Assembly (NCBI GenBank): GCA_963769935.1
Contig: CAVYNY010000020.1
Coordinates: 128,001 to 192,000, forward strand
Source: an uncultured delta proteobacterium
GTDB lineage: Bacteria > Desulfobacterota > Desulfobacteria > Desulfobacterales > JAFDCJ01
Reading direction: 5' to 3'
Length of the DNA: 64,000 nucleotides
Shown: positions 10,270 through 39,216 of the stretch, piece by piece
How the letters are laid out: the number at the start of each line of letters is the position of its first letter
Position numbering within the stretch: the first letter of the stretch is position 1
Program-made: the position numbers and the translations under genes
Notes under the pieces: generated by a model
The model's input: only the letters and a program-made list of their open reading frames with translations
Database searches by the model: none
Told to the model about the DNA's origin: nothing

Positions 10270-10875
10270 ATGCACATTTCTGAAGGAGTTCTATCCGCTC
10301 CCGTGCTGCTTTCGGGCGCGGCCCTGGCTGCCGTAGGGACGGGGATCGGGTTGAAGAAACTGGACTATGATCAGATAGCCAAAGCCGGCATGCTTTCGGC
10401 TGCCTTTTTTGTGGCGTCGCTGGTCCATGTCCCCATCGGGCCGTCCAATGTCCACTTGATATTGAACGGACTGGTGGGTCTTCTCCTGGGCTGGGGGGCC
10501 TTTCCGGCCATCCTGGTCGCACTGGTATTGCAGGCCGTTTTTTTCCAGTTCGGAGGCATTACGACCTTAGGGGTAAATACCGTCGTTATGGCGCTGCCGG
10601 CGACCCTTTGTTATCTTATTTTCGGACGGTTTGTCCAAAAAAGCTCCCGGACGGCCGTCATCGCCGCCTTTGCCTGTGGATTTCTGTCGGTGTTGCTGAG
10701 CGGGTTGTTGGTCGCCTTCTCTCTGGTTTTTACGGATGAGAATTTCCTGGATGTATCCGGCATCATCCTTGCCGCCCATGTACCGGTTATGATTATTGAA
10801 GGTATTGTTACTGCCATTTGTGTGGCCTTTTTGCGCAAAGTAAAGCCGGAGATGCTGCTGACCGGGCCGGACTAA
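10270..10875 (+). CDS. cbiM: Cobalt/nickel ECF transporter substrate component CbiM/NikM
   Basis: N-terminal MHISEG, ASLVHVPIGP.NVHL, GGITTLGVN. Confidence 0.93.
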   Translation: MHISEGVLSAPVLLSGAALAAVGTGIGLKKLDYDQIAKAGMLSAAFFVASLVHVPIGPSNVHLILNGLVGLLLGWGAFPAILVALVLQAVFFQFGGITTLGVNTVVMALPATLCYLIFGRFVQKSSRTAVIAAFACGFLSVLLSGLLVAFSLVFTDENFLDVSGIILAAHVPVMIIEGIVTAICVAFLRKVKPEMLLTGPD

Positions 10876-17095: not shown

Positions 17096-17607
17096 GTGGT
17101 CCTTTTTCCCCCACGGGCTGACTCATGAGACTGGTTTACAAATTCGGCGTCCGACCGTGCCGATTATCATTCGACTCCAGGTGCGCCCAATACACTGGAC
17201 TGTTTATTTTCAGATGCGAAAATTTTCTCTCATTTATGAACTATGGTCGATAAAAAGTCAATTAAATGTGCCGAAAGCTCTCTAAACCCTATATTCTGAA
17301 GTATCCGCCGTTGTCACACCGAGGTGTGACTGTGGCAAGGTTGGCTGGGGTGTTGAAATAATACAGTATTCAAAAAGCCTTCAGACCTATCGCGATCAGG
17401 CCAGTACGGCAGTATCCATAGCCACCGGCGCACACTGTATTGGTTATCAAAATAGCAGGCCATTATGAAGAAAGCATGAACCCGCCGATGATTTCCCGCC
17501 TAGACAAAACAGGAAAATGAGGCAGAGTATATAGAGCTGGTTGGGAAGTCCCTTAGCTGTAATTTATTTCTTGACAAAAATAGGCTCACTGTTTTACTGA
17601 AATATAT

Positions 17608-17772
17608 AAGGTGCGTAAGCTTAATAGGGAATCCCGTTAGAATCGGGAACGGTCCCGCCGCTGTAACCCTGCTTCATTAATTGAAGAAAACCAGTTCGGC
17701 CCCGTGCGCCACTGTATCGTTTTAACGGAATGGGAAGGCCGCCGGACGGGCGGGGGAGTCAGAAGACCTGCC
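17608..17772 (+). ncRNA. Cobalamin (B12) riboswitch
   Basis: AAGGTG...AATAGGGAATCCCG..GAATCGGGAACGGTCCCGCCGCTGT, GCCACTG...TGGGAAGGC, B12 box GAGTCAGAAGACCTGCC; TTGACA at 17571; upstream of cbiK. Confidence 0.95.
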
Positions 17773-17845
17773 TTGCCAATACGCTATTGCTCTGCGGGCA
17801 ACAGAGCGTGTTGTGATATGAAAAGGGTTAAGAAAACTGGGTGCA

Positions 17846-28348: not shown

Positions 28349-28558
28349 TCATTCCTTGACAGGCAGCACGTGAATGGCCTTGATGATCAGTTCGATTTCA
28401 TCCCCCGGTTTAATATCCAGATGTTCGACGGATTCCGTTGTCAGAACGGATGCCATCTCATGGGGATCGGTAACGGAAAATTTAACCATAGACATGACAT
28501 CCCCTTTTTTGAGGCTGCTGACCTTGGCACGGATGCGATTGCGGGCGCCGTATTTCAT
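28349..28558 (-). CDS. Mop/TOBE molybdate-binding protein (molbindin)
   Basis: MKYGARN..., SVLTTESVEHLDIKPGD...IIKA; 69 aa; RBS AAGGAGG. Confidence 0.88.
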   Translation of the reverse strand: MKYGARNRIRAKVSSLKKGDVMSMVKFSVTDPHEMASVLTTESVEHLDIKPGDEIELIIKAIHVLPVKE

Positions 28559-28725: not shown

Positions 28726-29325
28726 TTAGATATTGACGACCTTGTCGGCCAGCTGCATGGCGGTGACGATATCCAGCATATTGGTGGTCTCCCCGACCTG
28801 CTTTCGCTCCAACAGATTGAAGTGGTTCAGGCAGGTGCCGCAGACCATGATCTTAAGGCCGTCCTTTTCATACTGGCGGAGATCTTCCAGAACCTCCGAG
28901 CCGTCGATGGTCAGTTTCACGCCGTTGTTCACAAACACCAGCCTCCACAGCTCATTTCCCATCTCCTTGAGCGTACGCAGAAAATTGACCATCAACGCCA
29001 GGCCCAACGCGTCGTCGCCGAAGCCGATGCGGTCGGTGGCGCACATGACCATGATTTTCTTCAGTTCGTCGGATGGCTGTTCAACGGGTGGCTGAATTTG
29101 CTGCCCGGAGGCAGTATCGCAGGTTCCGATGACCAGGTAGTCGGCACCATTTTGCTCAAGCTTCGTTTGAAACCCCTGGGACTCCAGGAAGCGCTGGACA
29201 TTCTGCTGGGATGCGGCGTTGTCGACAACAATTCTCACGCCGGCGGGTTTTTCCTCCTGCAGCGCAGCCTTGGTTTGCAGCACCGGCGCCGGACACGCCA
29301 ATCCACGGGCATCGATTTCCTTCAT
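28726..29325 (-). CDS. yedF: Selenium-metabolism sulfurtransferase-like protein YedF (SirA/TusA plus DsrE domains)
   Basis: IDARGLACPAPV, FVNNGVKL, VCGTCLNHF, VGETTNM; directly downstream of selD. Confidence 0.9.
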   Translation of the reverse strand: MKEIDARGLACPAPVLQTKAALQEEKPAGVRIVVDNAASQQNVQRFLESQGFQTKLEQNGADYLVIGTCDTASGQQIQPPVEQPSDELKKIMVMCATDRIGFGDDALGLALMVNFLRTLKEMGNELWRLVFVNNGVKLTIDGSEVLEDLRQYEKDGLKIMVCGTCLNHFNLLERKQVGETTNMLDIVTAMQLADKVVNI

Positions 29326-29373
29326 TTTTAATCCTCCTGTTTCAGATATCGTTGATTGGTTGAATGGCTATCG

Positions 29374-29515
29374 CCGGTTAGCCAGTGTGCCCGTTTGCCA
29401 GTTAGCCGGTATGCTGGTCCGTTAAATTTGGCCAACAGGTAAACAGGTCAACGGGCTAACGGGTCAACCGGCCAACCGCGCTAGCGGACCGGCACAAGGG
29501 CAAACGGACTAGCCC
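29374..29515. repeat. Inverted array of degenerate 8-mers
   Basis: ccggttag/cccgtttg units followed by aacaggtc/aacgggct/aaccggcc units. Confidence 0.75.
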
Positions 29516-29516
29516 T

Positions 29517-30566
29517 TCATACCACGTATATTTTCTCTCTCGCGTCGCTTAGTATCTCCCCAATTTGCGCGGCATCTTCGATGCCTGCATTTTTCAGGTC
29601 CACAACGAGCGCTTCTGCCTGCCGCGCGCTTACACTGATCAGCAGGCCGCCCGAGGTCTGGGGATCGACCAGCACATCCTGCCGGGAGCGACCGACGGAA
29701 TCTGCGATGGTGATCATCGACTCCCGGAATTCTCTGTTTTTGTATGCTCCGGCGGGAATCAGCCCCATGGCAGCGAATTCCAGGGCTTCTGCAATCACCG
29801 GCACCTGATCCGCATAGATTTTTGCGCTCGTGCCCGAACCCAATACCATTTCGGCCAGATGGCCGAGCAGGCCGAAGCCGGTCACGTCGGTACAGGCGCC
29901 GACATCAAAATTCAACATGACGTCGGCGGCATCCCGGTTAAGAGCGGCCATCAATCGGGTTGCTTTGTCCGTGAGTTCCGCTGAAGCCATGGCCGCCTTG
30001 ATAGCGGTGTTGACAATTCCGCTGCCGAGCGGTTTCGTCAAAACCAGCCGGTCGCCCGGCCGCAGGTTCTTCTTGGTGAGCACCTTGGCCGGGTGCACGA
30101 TTCCGGTAACCGACAGACCGTATTTCAATTCCTGGTCTTCGATGCTGTGGCCGCCGATCAGAACCACTTCGGCCTCCGTTAGCTTGTCGAGCCCGCCCTG
30201 AATGATTTGCCGCAGAACCGACAGTTCCATATCCTTGACCGGAAAGGCTACCAGGTTCATGGCGGTCTTCGGCGTTCCGCCCATAGCGTAGACGTCGCTC
30301 AGGGCGTTGGCGGCGGCAATCTGTCCGAACCAGTATGGGTCGTCTACGATCGGTGTGAAGAAATCCACGGTCTGGATCAGCGCCAGCTCATCCGAAATCC
30401 TATACACACCGGCGTCGTCGGCGCGCTCCAAACCGACGATCACATTTTCATCGGTCGGAAACACCAGGCCGCACAGCGCCCGGTCCAGGTCCCCTGGAGC
30501 CAGTTTGGACGCTCAGCCGGATCCGGCGACCGTCTCGGTCAACCGTATTATCTTAATGTCGCTCAT
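29517..30566 (-). CDS. selD: Selenide, water dikinase SelD; selenoprotein with Sec18 (UGA at 30515-30513)
   Basis: MSDIKIIRLTETVAGSG-UGA-ASKL in frame with TVDFFTP, ANALSDVYAMGG, TDVTGFGLLGH, DPQTSGGLL; hairpin TCCAGG-GGA-CCTGGA with its loop 20 nt after UGA. Confidence 0.96.
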
Positions 30567-30619
30567 GGCTTTTTTCCTCTATTTCGTCAAATGTGCAATT
30601 TGGAGACTTGGCCTCCAAT

Positions 30620-30731
30620 CGGTTTCCAGTTTGCCCGTTAGCCCGTGTGCCCGTGTGCCGGTTGATCTGCCGGCCGGTTTTGGTAAACGAACATACGGGC
30701 TAACCGGCAAACGGGCCAACCGGCTAACTGT
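30620..30731. repeat. Inverted array of degenerate 8-mers (same family as 29374-29515)
   Basis: cccgttag cccgtgtg cccgtgtg ... acgggcta accggcaa acgggcca accggcta. Confidence 0.75.
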
Positions 30732-30935
30732 CTAACCGTCAAACGGACAGGACAGTTCTCCGGCATGGTATACGTGCTTCCGGCCGCAGAACGGGCAGGG
30801 TTGGTTGAGGGCTACCTTCGCATCCAGCGATTTGTTACCGGCCGCGTCGGTTATGACACCTCTGTTTTCCAGGATATTGAAATCCGGGCTTTCGAACACC
30901 TTGTTTTGAGTAGGACAGACAAAAATGAATTTCAT
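30732..30935 (-). CDS. Small Cys-rich hypothetical protein
   Basis: 67 aa with CP, CPFCG..H and SCPF motifs; co-oriented with the operon. Confidence 0.7.
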   Translation of the reverse strand: MKFIFVCPTQNKVFESPDFNILENRGVITDAAGNKSLDAKVALNQPCPFCGRKHVYHAGELSCPFDG

Positions 30936-30979
30936 ATGATTAATCCACCCGGAAACATGACACATCCAGAGTCGAAGCG

Positions 30980-31483
30980 CTACTGCTTGCCAGTTCCTTC
31001 AACCAGGCCGGAAAAAACGCACCGCAGAACCTTGTCGCTTATTTCCAGCAGCCGATCCTCTTGAAGATCTTCGACGATATCAGTTGAAGCGCCGTATGAG
31101 CGACTCGCGGGTGTCTGCGCTTTGGGAGAGATTTTAAGTAATTTACCCTTTCCGACAGGGACCTCTTTCAGGCGGCTGTTGTTTTCCAGCCAACGCTGGC
31201 ATTCATCGTGAGTGCCTAAAAAGGGGATATAGACCTTTCCCCCGCGCTGCAGGGTGATCAGCCGGTAGCCGCAGCCCAGATCGTATTTGCGGCAGTTCTT
31301 GATGCGATTCTCGCCGTACTTGGTATAGCTGCCGATCGCATCCATGTGGTGCCGGACAGCCCCCGAGGTCAGACTTTCGATAATGAGGATCGTTTTTTGC
31401 GCCAGGGCGACTCCCGCTTTGCCGGCTTTCTTAAGCGCTTCGATGCGGTTTTCGACCTTGACGCTGATATATAAATATTTCAT
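30980..31483 (-). CDS. Hypothetical protein (RelE-like segment KYDLGCGYRLI...FLGTHDE)
   Basis: 167-aa ORF inside the operon; fold guess from motif only. Confidence 0.65.
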   Translation of the reverse strand: MKYLYISVKVENRIEALKKAGKAGVALAQKTILIIESLTSGAVRHHMDAIGSYTKYGENRIKNCRKYDLGCGYRLITLQRGGKVYIPFLGTHDECQRWLENNSRLKEVPVGKGKLLKISPKAQTPASRSYGASTDIVEDLQEDRLLEISDKVLRCVFSGLVEGTGKQ

Positions 31484-31537
31484 AGCGAGTAGACAGTCCG
31501 GCTAAACCAATTCTCATTTTTTAAGCTTGCGGTGCTT

Positions 31538-32754
31538 TCAATCCAGCCCGCGGGGTCTCACCCGACTGGTTTCCGGTTTCAGTTCTCTTTTCAACCGGAG
31601 CTTGAGCAGCAGGCGGTTCAGGTAGGTGAAGGGCGACCGCGCCACCTTCAAACTGCCGTGCAGCGCAGCTTCGGGCCGATACAAAAGATCGGCGATGTGG
31701 ATAATCGGAACCGCCTGCTTTAGATAAGCGGCGCAGCCGGCACAGTAGGTAACCATGGGCCGATCGCCGTACTCACGGGCGCGGATACCCGACCAGCTCC
31801 CGGCGAATTCGGGCTTTACATACGCGACCATTCCGCCTTCTCCGCAGCAGACCGTGCGCTTGCCGCAGTGTTCCATCTCCGCCACCGTCAGCCCCATGCC
31901 GGTCAACAGGCTGCGGATTGCCTGCTGTACGTTCGCCTCGTTGCGCAGGGCACAGGGATCGTGCACGACGACCTCCCGGTCGCCGGCACGCGCGCCTTCC
32001 ATACCGCCGGATTCCTGGATGACTTCATAAACCGTCCTGACCCGGATGCCCTGGCCGTGATGCTGAAAAACGTTGAAACAGCTCGGACAGGCTACCAGAA
32101 CGGTCTTGACGCCCCGGCCTGATAAATAAGCGATCATCTCACCGAACATGGATTCGAAATAGGCCCGGCGACCCAGGTCATGGGAAGGTTTGGTGCAGCA
32201 GTCGAGCACGATTCCGATGGCGGGAATGATTTTCTGCAAATGCCGAAACATCCGCCGGGTCACCTCCGGCCGGGTTCCCGGCAGATTGCAGCCCGGGAAA
32301 AATACCGTATCGCAGCCCCGCGGCAGCCCATACCATGAAAACAGAGGCCGAAGTGCCGCGCTTTTCATAGCCTAAAATCGCTCCGGTAGGCGGCTTTGTC
32401 GAAATGGCCGCCGGCCGACATACAGCCGGCGCATCTCCAGAAAAAGGCCGCAGGGATCAAGGTTTTCCGGGCAGACAGCATTGCACAGGCCGCATAAACT
32501 GCATTCATAGGCTATCGCCAGATGCCGGGCGCGAGGAGAAATCAAGACTCCGATCGCATGGCTTTGGGTGTGCCGTAATGGGTTAAAAAGGCACACTCCC
32601 TGGTGCAGGCGCCGCACTCCGTGCAACGTTGCCGGATATCCTTTAGATACGGTTCCAAAGCGGGCGGCGCCTTGGCCTGGAAACCGCTTCGGCACGGCTT
32701 CAAATCCCCTGATTTCCCGCCGGAGCGGTCTCGATTTTTTAATTTTCTGCTCAT
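31538..32754 (-). CDS. (Fe-S)-binding CCG-domain oxidoreductase (HdrD/GlpC-like); frameshifts near 32540 and 32390
   Basis: CTECGACTREC, CSLCGLCNAVCP, FFPGC, CC, ACPSC, HDPC, CCGEGG, YCAGC across three frames. Confidence 0.85.
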
Positions 32755-33287
32755 TCAGACTTTTCCATCGGATAGCCGGCCCCTTTCCAGGCGAAGATTC
32801 CGCCCGGGTAGCGGTAGACATTCTTATAGCCGAGCTTGACGGCCCAGGCCGCCCCGTTGTGGCTGCGCGTGCATTTGACAAACCCGCAGTAGATGACGAT
32901 GGTTTTATTTTTGTCGCTGCCCAGCAGTTTTATAAAATCTTCCTGGGATTTGCCGTCGGTCTCCTGGGTGTTCCACTGGGGCATGTCCGGGATGGGAAAC
33001 AAAAACTGCACCGCGCCCGGCACATGATTTTTTTTGTAGCTGGCCTCATAGGGCATGGTGTCCACGATCACCATGTCCTTGCCGGCATCGATCCATTCTT
33101 TGAGTTCGGCGGTGGCGACCACATCGTATCCGCCCCGCTTCACGTCCCGCACGAGCTTGACCGCTTCGGTTTCCTTTTCCACTTCCTGTTCGAATTTGTT
33201 CTCGAACAGGGCGGCGGCCGGCCCGGCCAGGATGAACACCAGAATACCCGCCATCATCAGTTTCCGCACCGAATTAAATGTACGCAT
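32751..33287 (-). CDS. Exported rhodanese-like domain protein
   Basis: Signal peptide; VDTMP, HVPGA, YCGFVKCTRSH, YPGGIFAW. Confidence 0.9.
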   Translation of the reverse strand: MRTFNSVRKLMMAGILVFILAGPAAALFENKFEQEVEKETEAVKLVRDVKRGGYDVVATAELKEWIDAGKDMVIVDTMPYEASYKKNHVPGAVQFLFPIPDMPQWNTQETDGKSQEDFIKLLGSDKNKTIVIYCGFVKCTRSHNGAAWAVKLGYKNVYRYPGGIFAWKGAGYPMEKSE

Positions 33288-33773
33288 CTTCCGTCCTCCT
33301 TTTTTTTGCCAAGTTTTCTGATTATTAATGTTATCTTTACCGGCTGGATGGTACGGTAGCGGCGCCATCCATACATAAACCCAATTCCCGCCAGCATGGC
33401 CAGGTCACGGTAGAGGGACTCCCTGCAGGCCGTGGAAGGCCTTGGCTTCGGGATCGTCCGGGCCGAAGCAGCCGCAGTCCACGTCCAGCCCCATCCGGAT
33501 GCCGTAGCCCAATATGGCGATAAACAGCAACAGCAAACCGGCGATCACCGCCAGGCTGCCTTCGATCTCGCACAGCAGCCCGATGCCGCCGGCCACTTCC
33601 AGGGCCGGCAGGACGACGGCCACCGGCATGAGCAGGACTTGCGGCAGGATGCCGTAGGCCTCTATCAGAACGGCAAAGGTCCTGGGCTCCAGAAGTTTTA
33701 CGCACCCGGCATATATAAAGATGATCCCCAGACCCCAGCGGGCCAGTTTGTAGATCCAATCAACAGTTTTCAT
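33257..33773 (-). CDS. MauE/DoxX-family redox membrane protein; frameshift near 33420; 3' end approximate
   Basis: ARWGLGIIFIYAG..KL, LPALE, GLDVDCGCFG. Confidence 0.85.
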
Positions 33774-33817
33774 TGTGATGATCCCGCGAAAAAAACGCCC
33801 GGACTCGTCAACCGTCA

Positions 33818-34570
33818 TCATTCCCGGGCGAGAAGTGCCGCTCCCAGGGCCCCGACCAACTGCGGATCCTGCGGGCTCAGAATGCGACGGTCCAGTTTTT
33901 CTTCCAACAGCACCCGCATGCAGGGGTTTTTGGCCACCCCGCCGGTAAAGACGATATCCCCCTCCGACGACACCCGGTTGATCATGCCGGCGGCCCGGCG
34001 AATGACGCTGCTGTGCAGCCCCCGGGCGATTTCCCGCCGGTTCTGCCCCCTGGCGATCAGGGAAGTGACCTCGGATTCGGCAAATACCGTGCACATGCTG
34101 GAAATGTTGAGATCTTTTTCCGCCAGGAGGGCTTCGCTGCCGAATTCTTCGATTGCAAAGCCCAATGTTCGGGCCATGATTTCCAGAAATTTTCCGGTGC
34201 CGGCGGCGCAGCGGTCGTTCATTTCGAATTTTTTCACCCGGCCGTTGTCGAACAGCGAGATGGCCTTGCTGTCCTGCCCGCCGATATCCAGCACGGTGCG
34301 CACAGCCGGGAAAAACGCGCGGGCCCCTCTGGCATGGGCTTTGATCTCCGTAACCGTCGGGGCGTCAAAGGCGATCTCGAACAGGTTGCGGCCATAGCCG
34401 GTTGCCATGACACGATCATAGGCAATTCCGTCGACCAGCTTTTGGGCCTCGTCGATGGGATCAAAGCCGGTGTCGGCCTGCAGGCTGATAACGATTTCGC
34501 CCGCCTCATCCACCACCACCAGCTCGATGGTGCGTGAGCCGATATCAATTCCCGCAAAGCGCATACTCAC
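33818..34570 (-). CDS. ATP-dependent electron-transfer activase (BadF/HgdC family; DCCP-reductase-like)
   Basis: GIDIGS, ATGYGR, DIGGQDSK, MNDRCAAGTG, SMCTVFAESE, GGVAKN. Confidence 0.93.
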   Translation of the reverse strand: MSMRFAGIDIGSRTIELVVVDEAGEIVISLQADTGFDPIDEAQKLVDGIAYDRVMATGYGRNLFEIAFDAPTVTEIKAHARGARAFFPAVRTVLDIGGQDSKAISLFDNGRVKKFEMNDRCAAGTGKFLEIMARTLGFAIEEFGSEALLAEKDLNISSMCTVFAESEVTSLIARGQNRREIARGLHSSVIRRAAGMINRVSSEGDIVFTGGVAKNPCMRVLLEEKLDRRILSPQDPQLVGALGAALLARE

Positions 34571-34802
34571 CTTAACTTCTCATACGATGCTTTCTAAAAT
34601 CCAATGCCGTCAGCCGGAAGCATCTAACCGCAGGGATCGCTGAGTACGCAGAGATAATTTAAACTTTTCTTTCTCAACGTTCTTTGCAAGCTCTGCGGTG
34701 AATTACAGTGTTTCTTATTCGATCAGACAGGCTGCTTTTTTGGGCCAAAACCCAACGCCGCATTCTACAGCAAGCTTTTAAGATGGTCCAAGATCCTGAC
34801 GT

Positions 34803-36086
34803 CTACCGCAGCTGCTCGACAAAAGCCTCAACCCGGGTCTTCAGCTGGCCGATATCCTCCATGCTGTAGTCGGTTTCGATGCGCAGGCAGGGGATATTCT
34901 TTTCCTCCAGCGCTTTTTCCACCGGGATGGATTCCATCAGATACGGCTGGCAGAACTGCAGGCCGTAATGGATCACACCGTCGGCGTGGTAGGCGGCCAC
35001 CATTTCCCGGATATGGTTCAGGCGGTCCGGATTGGGCGTAAAAATGGCGCAATCGACCTTGAAAATAGCGATCCACGATGGCGTCCATCATTTCTTCCAC
35101 GGTCTGACCGGAATCATCTGTAAGGTTGCGGGTGCCGCGCTCGCCCACGCAGGACTCCTCGCCCACGATCACCCCGCCGGCGGTTTCCACAATCAGGGGC
35201 AGCTTCCAGTTGGGCACGGCCTGCGGGCAGCCGGAGACGAGAATCCGCGGGGTCTTGGGCGGGAAAACGCCCTTTTTTTCCGCAATCCGCTGCTCCAATT
35301 CGTCGCAGATTTTATTGACCGAGTCCGTAAACCGGGCCGGATTGTCGTAAAAGAAGACCTGGTTGGCCAGCAGGGCATCCAGGCCGGAGATGGGCGCCGG
35401 GTCGGCCTTACGCAGAGAGTGAGAGCCGATGGATGGCCGCCCGCTTGGCATTGACGGTCCGAATGGCCTGCTTCAGCGATTCGGCCGTGACAACAACACC
35501 CGTCAGTTTTTCGACCGCCGCCTTGAAACGCCCATATTCGGCCCGCAGCAAGTGCTTTGCCGTTTTCGGACTTGACCTGGGGCAGGTCCATCACGTAGAG
35601 GTTGTCAACCAGGGTATCAAGCGTTTCATAGGCCTTTTTCTTGCCGTCGCAGGTGTTTTCCCCCACGATCATGTCCGCGCTTTCCAGGTAGGGGCAGACC
35701 TTGCCGAGTTTAAACCCGAAGGATGATTTAATCAGGGCACAGGTGTTGCGGGGCAGCAGCTTTTCCACATCCTCGGTGGCAAAGTCGGCCCCGGAGCAAA
35801 GCCCCACCAGGGTGGCGTTGGCGGCCAGCACGATCTCCTCGGGCACGAAAACGCAATAGGAGCCGATGATTTTACGGCCGGCGGCCTTTTCGTCCAGCAA
35901 CTCCTTGATCCGCAAACCGTGGACCTCGCTCATGACGAAGTCAAAATAGCCCATCCCTTCCGGGCGGTCTTTCTGAGACAGGTAAATGTCCTGATAAGCT
36001 TTTCCCAAAACATCCAGCAGGGCGTCATGGGCTGCAAGATCGAGCCCCAGATCGGCCCACATCGAACGATAATCTTCACTCATCAT
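34803..36086 (-). CDS. Double-cubane-cluster-type reductase / 2-hydroxyacyl-CoA dehydratase family; several frameshifts
   Basis: YCVFVPEE, GLCSG, PRNTCALIKS, CPY, ENTCDGKKK, EESCVG, FCQPY, IETDYS..D.GQLKTRVEAF. Confidence 0.85.
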
Positions 36087-36300
36087 GTGCTCCTTTCAAC
36101 GATTGCTGCCTTTTTTCCCCCCGGCGGTCAGGCCGGATGGATGCAGCGGTTGCGTGGTTTTTCATTCAGAACGCGGCAGTTTCCGGGAAAGTTCGGCTGG
36201 ACCGATACCGACAGCAAAGATAGCATTTTTGTCCAAATGACGAATTGACGATGGCAGGTTGGATACGATTTTGGCATTCGGCGTCGTCTAACAAACCCGG

Positions 36301-36345
36301 TTAGCTGATTCAATGTCCTCAGGTAAAGCCAAAAACGTCACTCAT
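36301..36345 (-). CDS. Putative selenocysteine leader peptide MSDVFGFT(U)GH(U)IS
   Basis: RBS GAGGT 5 nt before ATG; in-frame UGA at codons 9 and 12; hairpin CTAAC-CGGGTTT-GTTAG; upstream TTGACA at 36433. Confidence 0.55.
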
Positions 36346-36463
36346 GGCGGACCTCGCGGAAGAGTTGCCCTTTCGATCAATTGGGGAGTAATTTTATAGA
36401 AATTTTATCGCATGGAAAATATCGATATGTCAAACAGGAAATTCCGATAGAAATGGGAGGCTG

Positions 36464-37375
36464 TTAAGGTTTTTCCGATAGGAGGAAATCATGCATGGCC
36501 TGGCAGGATGGCGAAGCGATCCGCAGTTTATTGCGAATCAGAAAAAAGCTGCGCGACATCGAAAGTCCTTTGACCTTCAAAGCTTTGAGCAGTCCGGCTT
36601 TAACCTCGGTGTCGATGGCAATGGCGGAGAGGATCGACAGGCCGAGGCCGGATTTGATGCCCTCTTTGACGGCCGTCGAGGAGCCGAAACGGGCGGAGAC
36701 TTGAAGGACGTTGCTGCCGTTCTTATCGGATTCACGCAGATTGGCCTCCAGGATCTTCAGCGTCCCGGAGCCTTCCTCCCGCAATATAAATGGGATTCCC
36801 CGCAGCTCCTGCAGGGAGACGGACTTGCGCCGGGCCCACGGGTGCCGGGCCGGGACGGCCAGCACCAGATCGTCCTCCCACAGTTTCTGGCACAAGAGGT
36901 TGGGGTGCAGACTTTTTTTTCCGATAACCCCGATCTCCAGTTTACCTTCAAGGACCTGATTTTCAATTTCACTGCTGTCCGCGATGGTCAGTTTCACAGA
37001 TAAGTGCGGGTACTTATTCTTAAATCTGCTGACGAGACCCGGAAGAATATACTCACCGGGGATGGTGCTGCCGCCCATGGAAATTTCTCCCTGCTCCAGT
37101 CCGAGAAACTTTTCCATTTCCAATTGGGCCGTTTCTTTCATTTCCAACAGGAGGACGGCATGCTTGTACACTATTTCGCCGGCGGCCGTCGGCACCACTT
37201 TTCTACCCAGGCGGTCCAGCAGCCGGATTCCGATTTTTTTTTCAAGCGAGGCGATCCTTTCACTGACCGAGGCCTGAACCAGAAAAACAGCTTCCGCAGC
37301 CTTCGAAAAACTCTCCAATTCGACTACTTTGCAAAAAATTTCAAGCTCGCGAAAACTGAAATCAATATTCAGCAT
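36464..37375 (-). CDS. LysR-family regulator (selenium-metabolism-associated type by context)
   Basis: SFSKAAEAVFLVQASVS..IASLE HTH; GGSTIPGEYILP; REEGSGT. Confidence 0.9.
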   Translation of the reverse strand: MLNIDFSFRELEIFCKVVELESFSKAAEAVFLVQASVSERIASLEKKIGIRLLDRLGRKVVPTAAGEIVYKHAVLLLEMKETAQLEMEKFLGLEQGEISMGGSTIPGEYILPGLVSRFKNKYPHLSVKLTIADSSEIENQVLEGKLEIGVIGKKSLHPNLLCQKLWEDDLVLAVPARHPWARRKSVSLQELRGIPFILREEGSGTLKILEANLRESDKNGSNVLQVSARFGSSTAVKEGIKSGLGLSILSAIAIDTEVKAGLLKALKVKGLSMSRSFFLIRNKLRIASPSCQAMHDFLLSEKP

Positions 37376-37862: not shown

Positions 37863-39216
37863 ATGACGGAAGCTTGTCGCGAACGCTTGATAATCTTCAC
37901 CCGCTACCCGGAACCCGGTACGACCAAAACCCGCATGATACCGGAGCTGGGGCCGAAGGCGCCGCCGATCTCCAGCGCCGGATGACCGAGCACATTGTGG
38001 CCAGAGTTGTCAAGCTGATCGGGAATTGCGCAAAATGCCGGTGGAGATTCGCTATGAAGGCGGCAGTGAACAATTGATGGCCGCATGGCTGGGGAACGGC
38101 TTTTCCTATTGTCCCCAGGGTGAGGGGGACATCGGGCTTCGGATGGGGCGTGCCCTGGAGCAAGCTTTTACCCAGGAATTCGATAGCGTGGTGATTATCG
38201 GATCCGATATTCCGGATATCACGACCGAAATTCTGCAAAATGCGTTTGAGATGCTTAAACATATTGACCTGGTGCTGGGACCGGCCGGAGACGGGGGGTA
38301 TTATCTGATCGGTGTGCATCGCAAAACTTTCCGCCATTGGAATCCACAATTATTCGGCGATATCAGCTGGGGAACCGAAAGTGTTCTCCCCCAGACGCTG
38401 GCCATTGCCGAAAGATTAGGACTGAATTACCGTCTGCTCGATACACTCAATGATGTGGATCGGCCCGAAGATCTCAGCGTGTGGTATCAGGCTTCAAACC
38501 CGTGCCCCCCTTCAAACAACCCTATATCCCTGTCAGTTATCATACCGACTTTAAATGAAGCGGATACAATCGGTGAAACCGTTGCCGGTATTCGGCCAAA
38601 CAGCCGGACGGAAATCATTGTGGTTGACGGGGGCAGCCGGGACGGAACCGCCGAAATTGCCGAATCCCTGGGTGCCAAAGTGCTCAGGACTTCCCCCCCA
38701 AAGGGTGCCCAAATGAATGCCGGTGCTGCGGAAGCAGGCGGCGATGTACTGTTATTTTTGCATGCCGATACCCGCCTGCCGGAAAATTTCGAGGAATGTG
38801 TTCTGGCGGCTGCTGCCCAGGACGGCTTTTGTGCGGGCGCTTTTTCGTTGGGCATCGAATCATCTAAAAAGGGTCTCCGATTGATCGAAAAAGTTGCCAA
38901 CTGGCGTTCCCGCTTTCTTCAGTTGCCTTACGGCGATCAGGCACTATTTGTATTCCGCGACCGGTTTCAAGAGGTCGGAGGGTACCCGGAATATCCGATT
39001 ATGGAAGATTTCGTGTTAATCCGGCGTCTGAAAAATAAATGCAAAGTTAGCATTTTGCCGCAATCCGTGCAGACCTCGCCCCGACGTTGGCAAAACCTTG
39101 GCATTTTCAGAACCTGGCTGTTAAATCAGCTAATTATCGTTGCCTACTACCTCGGTATATCTCCCCGGCGACTCGCGCAATGGTATCGACGCGACAAGGA
39201 TCAACCCAATCAGTAA
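37863..39216 (+). CDS. Fused DUF2064 (TIGR04282-type) and GT2 (TIGR04283-type) glycosyltransferase; frameshifts near 37950-38035
   Basis: LIIFTRYPEPGTTKTRMIP, IGSDIP, LGPAGDGGYYLIG, DVD.PEDL; then SVIIPTLNE, VDGGS, FLHAD, GDQALF, MED, TSPRRW. Confidence 0.85.

Follow-up and report, generated by a model that had tools for sequence, protein, structure and literature searches.

Organisation of the locus

The DNA analysed here is a 64-kb stretch from an uncultured delta proteobacterium (contig CAVYNY010000020.1, positions 128,001 to 192,000; hereafter the window, whose numbering is used throughout). Its minus strand carries a gene series running from a LysR-type regulator through a double-cubane cluster protein (DCCP) reductase and its activase to selD and yedF. 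Upstream of the reductase lies a leader in which a short reading frame ends at a UGA codon and is followed by a hairpin resembling a selenocysteine insertion sequence (SECIS) (Table 1). The initial annotation of this DNA had read the series as a LysR-linked operon, and all of its genes are present in the listed order. LysR is probably not on the same transcript as the reductase, because a predicted promoter and the leader separate the two. The leader, held in the 377-nt intergenic stretch between LysR and the reductase, had already been named, but its contents (UGA frame, hairpin, anti-leader and operator box) had not. The host genome of about 8 Mb carries selA, selB, the gene for the selenocysteine tRNA (tRNA-Sec) and rho, the last found by a family search (a short Rho motif gave no match). 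By its UGA codon, its SECIS-like hairpin, which begins 14 nt past that codon, and the presence of selA, selB and selC, SelD qualifies as a selenoprotein.

Table 1. Operon genes and leader elements, in the order of transcription. Sec, selenocysteine.
Feature	Position in window	Strand	Remarks
LysR, selenium-associated subfamily	36464..37375	-	NF040786 (LysR_Sec_metab) 275 bits, above the cut-off of 250
Predicted LysR-type operator (T-N11-A, ATMG-N7-CKAT consensus)	36428..36448	-	abuts -35 TTGACA
Shine-Dalgarno GAGG and leader frame MSDVFGFT-UGA	36319..36355	-	frame 36345-36319; TGA 36321-36319
SECIS-like hairpin	36288..36304	-	5-bp stem, 7-nt loop starting CGGG, 14 nt past leader UGA
Anti-leader	36265..36275	-	complementary to middle codons of leader frame
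Pyrimidine-rich tract, candidate Rho-loading site	36199..36264	-	
Class I DCCP reductase	34803..36083	-	three single-base insertions in assembly
ATP-dependent ASKHA activase, DCCP-R type	33818..34564	-	TIGR00241 228 bits
MauE/DoxX membrane protein, CGC motif	33290..33773 (end approximate, frameshifted)	-	PF07291
Exported rhodanese, CxxxxC	32751..33287	-	PF00581; signal-peptide-like N-terminus (by eye); motif conserved
4Fe-4S dicluster and CCG protein	~31538..32754 (frameshifted)	-	PF13534, PF02754; partial match to NF045663
Unnamed conserved protein, predicted RelE/YafQ fold	30980..31483	-	fold in residues 1-100, then acidic linker and helix
67-aa four-cysteine protein	30732..30935	-	possible zinc ribbon or Se/metal carrier; without family match
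SelD, Sec18	29517..30566	-	TIGR00476 360 bits; UGA codon 18; SECIS-like hairpin 30498-30484
YedF, TusA and DsrE domains, CPxP and CGxC	28726..29325	-	TIGR03527 215 bits
TOBE/Mop oxyanion-binding protein	28349..28558	-	TIGR00638; downstream, outside the range initially annotated

The reductase, MauE and CCG genes are all frameshifted in the window. These frameshifts are very likely errors of the long-read assembly, because the extra bases, at 35552, 35417, 35061, 33424 and 33300 as well as at seven sites within 32346-32695, are absent from short-read contigs of the same organism or a very close one, the genes have intact orthologues, and the host selA likewise scores as two pieces. Given the short reads and the orthologues, the window genes were treated as functional; true pseudogenes were rejected on account of the short-read contigs.

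Identity of the reductase

All seven cysteines of the cluster motif are present across the frame pieces of the window reductase and align with cysteines of the structurally characterised DCCP; of 94 homologues grouped by clustering, 88 have the motif. An intact orthologue matches DCCP over its full length (PDB 6ENO; residues 4-424 on residues 3-420, E ~1e-136) and contains the N-terminal extension closing the coenzyme A (CoA) channel (~420 aa). On NF040772, for which the cut-off is 350, an intact orthologue with 83-87% identity by segment reaches 470 bits. The window pieces score 166, 110 and 93 bits and stay below this cut-off because the gene is frameshifted in the assembly. The reductase is adjoined by an ASKHA activase (TIGR00241), the partner expected of class I DCCPs. 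On these sequence grounds the enzyme, initially annotated as of double-cubane type, is a class I double-cubane protein, with a predicted [8Fe-9S] cluster and predicted ATP-dependent reduction. Grouping with the dehydratases and a loss of cluster ligands had been named as grounds for abandoning the initial interpretation; the ligands are in place, and the orthologue matches HadC (E 1e-15) and BzdN (2e-22) only weakly. An identity as 2-hydroxyacyl-CoA dehydratase or benzoyl-CoA reductase was also rejected on architecture, the reductase being a single gene with seven cysteines rather than an alpha-beta three-cysteine pair with an open CoA channel. In class I DCCPs the N-terminal extension is described as leaving narrow channels only, which speaks in favour of a small substrate (PMC7317905, section 2.3).

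No selenocysteine form of the reductase was found in 165 alignments to orthologous loci, save for one TGA in a copy with two in-frame stops, nor did the host genome and the orthologous loci yield selenocysteine forms of MauE, the CCG protein, the two hypothetical proteins or YedF. The two-stop copy is part of a decaying version of the operon (locus L075, 8339-10900), where activase and selD match in part.

A leader frame ending at UGA

The window leader consists of eight codons (MSDVFGFT) followed by UGA, with a second UGA three codons further on. In the best 80 of 266 related reductase loci, the set used for all neighbourhood counts below, 35 such leaders occur at 34 loci, and a leader lies within 4.5 kb upstream of the reductase at 26 loci, compared with 4 of 300 random windows. 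The pattern matched in 62 of 401 genomes of the phylum against 15 control matches, some of the 62 being chance matches. When the ninth codon was left free in 251 genomes of the class, it was TGA in 56 of 85 matches (two control matches, counted by eye); scattered sense codons filled the other 29, and TAA, TAG, TGC and TGT did not occur. Leaving GFT free gave 47 matches and one control match, comprising 30 GFT/GFI leaders, ten other eight-codon leaders, six long open reading frames (ORFs) and one chance match. Ten of the 40 eight-codon leaders thus carry unrelated peptides, and ATG, frame, eight-codon length and UGA are kept in relatives even where the peptide differs. All three GFT codons vary synonymously, and a Shine-Dalgarno-like word precedes 96 of 124 leaders.

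The leader hairpin has the form of a bacterial SECIS, a short stem with a G-containing loop ~18-27 nt past the UGA: the loop starts 18-23 nt past the UGA in 124 leaders, against 18-27 nt for 17 selenocysteine codons of the host genome. After read-through, 87 of the 124 leaders have their next stop 5 or 10 codons further, inside the hairpin; in the window it comes after 3 codons. Double-sided changes occur in five of six hairpin pairs in an alignment of 24 hand-picked leaders. Because the six long ORFs continue past their UGA with the same hairpin, this hairpin type probably works as a SECIS. These ORFs, of 300-515 codons (L334-L338; G524, G453), run past an early Ala-UGA followed by the SECIS-like hairpin and appear to be an unannotated family of selenoproteins that contain repeats and are probably secreted. 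The ten non-GFT leaders (L324-L333; endings such as YQH, KRQ and ERH), nine of them from one family, precede cysteine-type Fe-S, HdrA, MvhD and HesB genes and often a gene for a protein with a predicted RelE fold. Divergent GFT-UGA leaders with a different hairpin, possibly from another lineage (L220, L237, L244, L250, L256, L260), precede distant (22-34%) homologues of a 'transglutaminase-like' protein, a label given by eye without a family match.

Downstream of the hairpin, the anti-leader can pair with the leader frame in a 9-bp consensus helix, in which 86% of alignment cells are paired and 73 cells show double-sided change; in 113 of 124 cases a leader's own anti-leader pairs better than the partners of other leaders. 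The pyrimidine-rich tract that follows has a C/G ratio of 2.74 at +60 to +80 over the leader set and is weak in the window (18 C versus 12 G).

The hairpin could instead be a SelB operator, as in Escherichia coli selAB (bioRxiv 10.64898/2026.03.03.709296), at which SelB-GTP-Sec-tRNA would repress without translation and to which the small frame would be incidental. RNA pairing could indeed account for part of the codon conservation, and the E. coli case is a precedent, but Shine-Dalgarno sequence, ATG, frame, length and UGA are kept where the peptide changes, and the hairpin lies ~200 nt from the next start codon, as opposed to 3 nt from the selA Shine-Dalgarno sequence in E. coli. We regard this explanation as very unlikely and favour a translated frame.

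Upstream of the leaders, a search for the operator followed by TTGAC, with up to two mismatches, in 120 leader upstream regions found the box in 83; in 75 of these it lies 72-97 nt ahead of the leader ATG. Shuffled sequences gave a mean of 2.1, and 14 of 1000 random 200-nt windows matched. A pattern with three mismatches was dropped as unspecific (165 of 400 random windows). We infer that LysR binds this box. In the window leader, a promoter and terminator scan stayed near shuffle level and found no intrinsic terminator, and Rfam had nothing at gathering scores and, up to an E value of 10, one chance snoRNA match. A leader of this kind is not described in the full-text literature searched, a body of text that excludes most subscription papers and supplements.

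Conservation of the module and its link to selenium

Records titled Desulfobacterales, Desulfobulbaceae, Syntrophaceae and similar account for the reductase orthologues, and those with species names include Desulfocicer vacuolatum, Desulfofustis glycolicus and Desulfatitalea alkaliphila. The activase adjoins the reductase at 76 of the 80 loci, whereas a close LysR orthologue does so at one, so that LysR adjacency was rejected as a conserved feature; a member of the LysR family lies elsewhere in each of five genomes checked. Other companions are the RelE-fold protein (31 loci, by clustering), the four-cysteine protein (24), yedF (22), selD (17) and TOBE (11). HesB-type proteins, YedE, SelB, TusA, a PstSCA-like transporter and a protein that we take to be DUF3343, a label unconfirmed by any family match, also recur. 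A selenium marker (selD, yedF, yedE, selB, DUF3343 or TusA) is present at 35 of the 80 loci and at 25 of the 46 loci of at least 20 kb. The PstSCA-like ABC transporter, a candidate importer of selenium oxyanions, lies within the reductase locus in 12 cases (L051, L116, L126, L128 and eight more).

The initial annotation had tied the reductase to selenium, and this link is firm, given the neighbourhood, the selenocysteine-codon leader and the genome content, with selD present in 30 of the 31 genomes whose locus shows neither a marker nor an upstream leader. It agrees with published work: 955 of 970 high-scoring double-cubane (NF040772) proteins occur in SelD genomes, and Haft & Gwadz proposed that selenium compounds are processed or, as a formal possibility, that the cluster is selenium-bridged (bioRxiv 10.1101/2022.07.06.499078), while a STRING table of Lin et al. 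2015 links a 'hydroxyglutaryl-CoA dehydratase' and its activase to both LysR_Se and YedF (PMC5322559). The operon's link to SelD is thus already in print; for the leader, the literature searched held no description.

The same annotation had further proposed one obligatory chain of uptake and reduction, in which periplasmic rhodanese, MauE, the CCG protein, the reductase, YedF and SelD would act in turn. Co-orientation with gaps of 44, 22 and -4 nt fits such a relay, as does the MauE-rhodanese pair being the first unit behind leaders in other DNA, and one locus (L086) holds the whole gene set, although in a different order and without LysR. That locus is the only one of the 80, however: MauE and rhodanese are found at seven loci each (together at six) and the CCG protein at two, which makes them accessory genes. 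Moreover, homology links the rhodanese to the N-terminal domain of the selenoprotein TsoB (NF045694 domain match, E 9e-29, far under the whole-protein cut-off), and the host genome encodes a distant UGA-containing rhodanese. Given the similarity to TsoB, the rhodanese may serve as a cysteine back-up and not as a carrier. The six steps of the relay are not conserved together, and an obligatory chain seems improbable to us. The UGA-containing host rhodanese is small, with the UGA at the active-site cysteine position (G000:C33 near 59885), and a further selD of the host (G000:C7 near 116181) has UGA at its catalytic site.

Genes behind leaders and direction of control

A metagenome scan gave 121 leader matches, of which 92 had a stem of at least 4 bp. 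Downstream genes were taken as the first match to a reference set, which 56 of the 92 possessed: DCCP in 14 cases, yedE in 9, the four-cysteine protein in 6, selD in 5, the RelE-fold protein in 4, selB and MauE in 3 each and others in 12. Two classes of gene stand behind leaders. The first serves selenium supply and decoding (selB, selD, yedE and the reductase with its companions), and the second consists of cysteine copies of FDH, HdrA, MvhD, an Fe-S/CCG protein, a UshA-like protein, OS_HP2 and HesB, all families with selenoprotein members in this group of bacteria. Among 36 loci examined for FDH, HdrA and the TE[C/U]GH Fe-S protein, nine of which lacked the motif, the selenocysteine position was cysteine in all 30 motifs found, and the host genome's own paralogues of these three proteins carry TGA. 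In Methanococcus, cysteine isoenzymes and yedE rise in low selenium (PMC11097638). Because the supply genes and cysteine copies behind leaders match this response, we infer that the leader is ON when selenium is low.

Alternatively, the frame could encode a functional small selenopeptide, or the switch could be ON in high selenium; this would accord with UGA plus SECIS being the signature of a selenoprotein and with selD, itself in need of selenocysteine, standing behind the leader. What follows the UGA differs in sequence and ranges from 2 to >40 codons in length, and the redox enzymes encoded behind leaders are of the cysteine type, both of which make this reading extremely improbable; induction by selenium shortage is the reading that we retain.

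The leader might sense selenocysteine while the reductase replaces the reaction of a selenoenzyme or itself needs selenium derived from SelD, for example in a selenium-bridged cluster. The cysteine back-ups behind the same leader fit this, and the co-occurrence with SelD would fit any selenium dependence (bioRxiv 10.1101/2022.07.06.499078). Yet the alignments contain no selenocysteine reductase apart from the two-stop copy, the gene clusters with selD, yedF, yedE, TusA and DUF3343, and to induce a selenium consumer in selenium shortage would be counter-productive. We therefore consider a reductase outside selenium supply unlikely.

Proposed mechanism

We propose, as the most probable account, though with only moderate confidence in the whole, a low-selenium-induced operon in which a selenocysteine-sensing leader controls the double-cubane reductase, its activase, SelD and YedF. 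When Sec-tRNA is plentiful, SelB would decode the leader UGA and the ribosome would terminate at a stop codon, situated within the hairpin in most leaders; the leader:anti-leader helix would then close and transcription would halt, with Rho acting at the pyrimidine-rich tract as the most likely cause. When Sec-tRNA is scarce, the ribosome would dwell at the UGA and keep the helix open, so that the operon would be read. LysR likely adds a second control at the DNA level. The reductase, supplied with ATP-energised electrons, would free selenide from a small selenium compound that is hard to reduce, thereby feeding YedF and SelD. We hold the leader part with more confidence than the role of the reductase: from sequence, the leader is likely a low-selenium ON switch, and it points to selenium supply as the likely job of the enzyme. 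Taken as a whole, the interpretation initially given is partly supported.

Several observations weigh against this proposal. For the RNA, the count of double-changed pairs seen in the leader:anti-leader helix is also attained by 148 of 500 shuffles, and this helix was taken from the same alignment that was used to score covariation; the hairpin alignment consists of hand-picked leaders, and relatives are not independent. Taken singly, the window leader has a folding energy no different from that of its shuffles (z about 0). When two leader subfamilies were folded by constrained consensus, the SECIS hairpin was the only result and no alternative stalled-state structure emerged, probably because the alignments are gappy. 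Just 6 of 119 leaders have terminator-like sites, scattered in position, and the window leader has none. Because an alternative structure is missing and terminators are not conserved, the output step of the switch is a guess. As for the genes, 31 of the 80 reductase loci have neither a marker gene nor an upstream leader. Four hairpin-bearing metagenome matches had 1.5 kb of downstream sequence without a reference match, and 32 more had <330 nt. Leaders also front genes that require selenocysteine (selD; a TGA-containing UshA-like gene in L196), and because they front back-up enzymes, a role of the reductase in acquiring selenium does not follow from the leader alone.

On the natural substrate of double-cubane enzymes, published work has contributed only co-occurrence with SelD. 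A cis element common to selenium transporters and selenium-free back-ups adds a direction, on when selenium is low, and so names the growth condition in which deletion of the reductase should show a phenotype. If the proposal is true, the leader would be an attenuator that responds to the 21st amino acid, and it might account for the switching between selenocysteine and cysteine isoenzymes in these bacteria, a switch anticipated for Desulfobacterium autotrophicum (PMC2702500). The leader also serves as a marker for unknown selenium genes, such as those of the RelE-fold and four-cysteine proteins.

The two hypothetical proteins and neighbouring features

The 167-aa protein belongs to an unnamed family with 328 matches and has a predicted RelE/ParE superfamily fold. 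In a structure comparison of its model (predicted local distance difference test (pLDDT) 76), the top nine rows all belonged to this superfamily, including YoeB, RelE and YafQ, the last with Z 9.3 and a root-mean-square deviation of 2.6 over 88 aligned residues; the Foldseek E value was just 0.007. PF24732 (ParE_like) matched in 17 of 119 homologues, while a PDB sequence search with the family gave chance matches only. R60, R74, H92, D93 and W98 are invariant in the family, which is compatible with catalysis but does not prove it. Compared with the ribosome-dependent RNases RelE, YafQ and YoeB, whose predicted fold it shares, the protein has 12-18% identity, an extra C-terminal region and no obvious antitoxin gene upstream.

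The RelE-fold protein is present in 6 of 201 genomes of the phylum, in one copy each, and in all five genomes other than the host's its gene lies beside reductase, DUF3343-like or cysteine-isoform genes; it is also found behind non-GFT leaders. An attractive, if speculative, role would be the clearing of ribosomes stalled at UGA codons. One may extend the proposed mechanism to a selenium-starvation regulon of sulfate-reducer relatives, in which a ribosome-read selenocysteine attenuator would induce cysteine back-ups, a reductase that mines selenide for SelD out of small refractory selenium compounds, and a RelE-fold nuclease that rations selenocysteine by cutting mRNAs where ribosomes stall at undecodable UGA codons, a picture that we offer tentatively and think doubtful as a whole. 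A search for longer forms found the RelE-fold domain in one 856-aa UvrD-type helicase protein (P0122). The 67-aa protein has four conserved cysteines.

Short imperfect repeats precede selD (30600-30735) and yedF (29340-29500), and contigs of close strains differ there. Just past LysR, on the plus strand (38026-39216), lies a TIGR04282-TIGR04283 glycosyltransferase fusion annotated for arsenosugar biosynthesis, the first domain of which begins at model position 46 and may be frameshifted. A cobalamin riboswitch is located at 17592-17789 (plus strand) and a CbiM-like gene, identified by eye, at 10270-10875.

Comparison with known systems

Leader-peptide attenuators are represented by the trpL, hisL and leuL types and by the Rho-dependent tnaC and mgtL. 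The window leader resembles them in its short translatable frame, its putative sensing codon and a predicted helix that a translating ribosome could open. It differs in that sensing would fall to a recoded UGA, dependent on SelB and a SECIS, and in the lack of a conserved intrinsic terminator. A general model of attenuators is given in PMC3847290. The SECIS-like operator of E. coli selAB is likewise a 5' RNA that reports the status of SelB and Sec-tRNA; it blocks the adjacent Shine-Dalgarno sequence directly, and an upstream UGA frame does not appear in the accessible text (bioRxiv 10.64898/2026.03.03.709296). In the HrsM regulon of Methanococcus, a LysR protein belonging to the same subfamily controls the induction of cysteine isoenzymes and of a YedE transporter in selenium shortage, but this system is archaeal and repressor-based, and the part of the article available describes no leader frame (PMC11097638).

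The published neighbourhoods of LysR_Se, YedE, YedF and DUF3343 share their accessory families with the window operon, whereas cis elements are not described and the enzyme is not recognised as double-cubane in the portion accessible to us (PMC5322559). The co-occurrence of NF040772 with SelD reported by Haft & Gwadz applies here as well; their text, as far as accessible, does not cover LysR, YedF, rhodanese or MauE and gives no direction of regulation (bioRxiv 10.1101/2022.07.06.499078). No Sao model of the SAO system (saoABCDELPTX) was among the matches of the operon proteins. A review of DCCPs, in its accessible sections, names neither a physiological substrate nor selenium (PMC7317905). 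With DCCP and DCCP-R of Carboxydothermus hydrogenoformans (PDB 6ENO, 7YYL) the window pair shares the seven-cysteine motif, the N-terminal extension and the adjacent ASKHA activase, but in contrast to that system, the window reductase sits together with selD and yedF behind a selenocysteine-codon leader.

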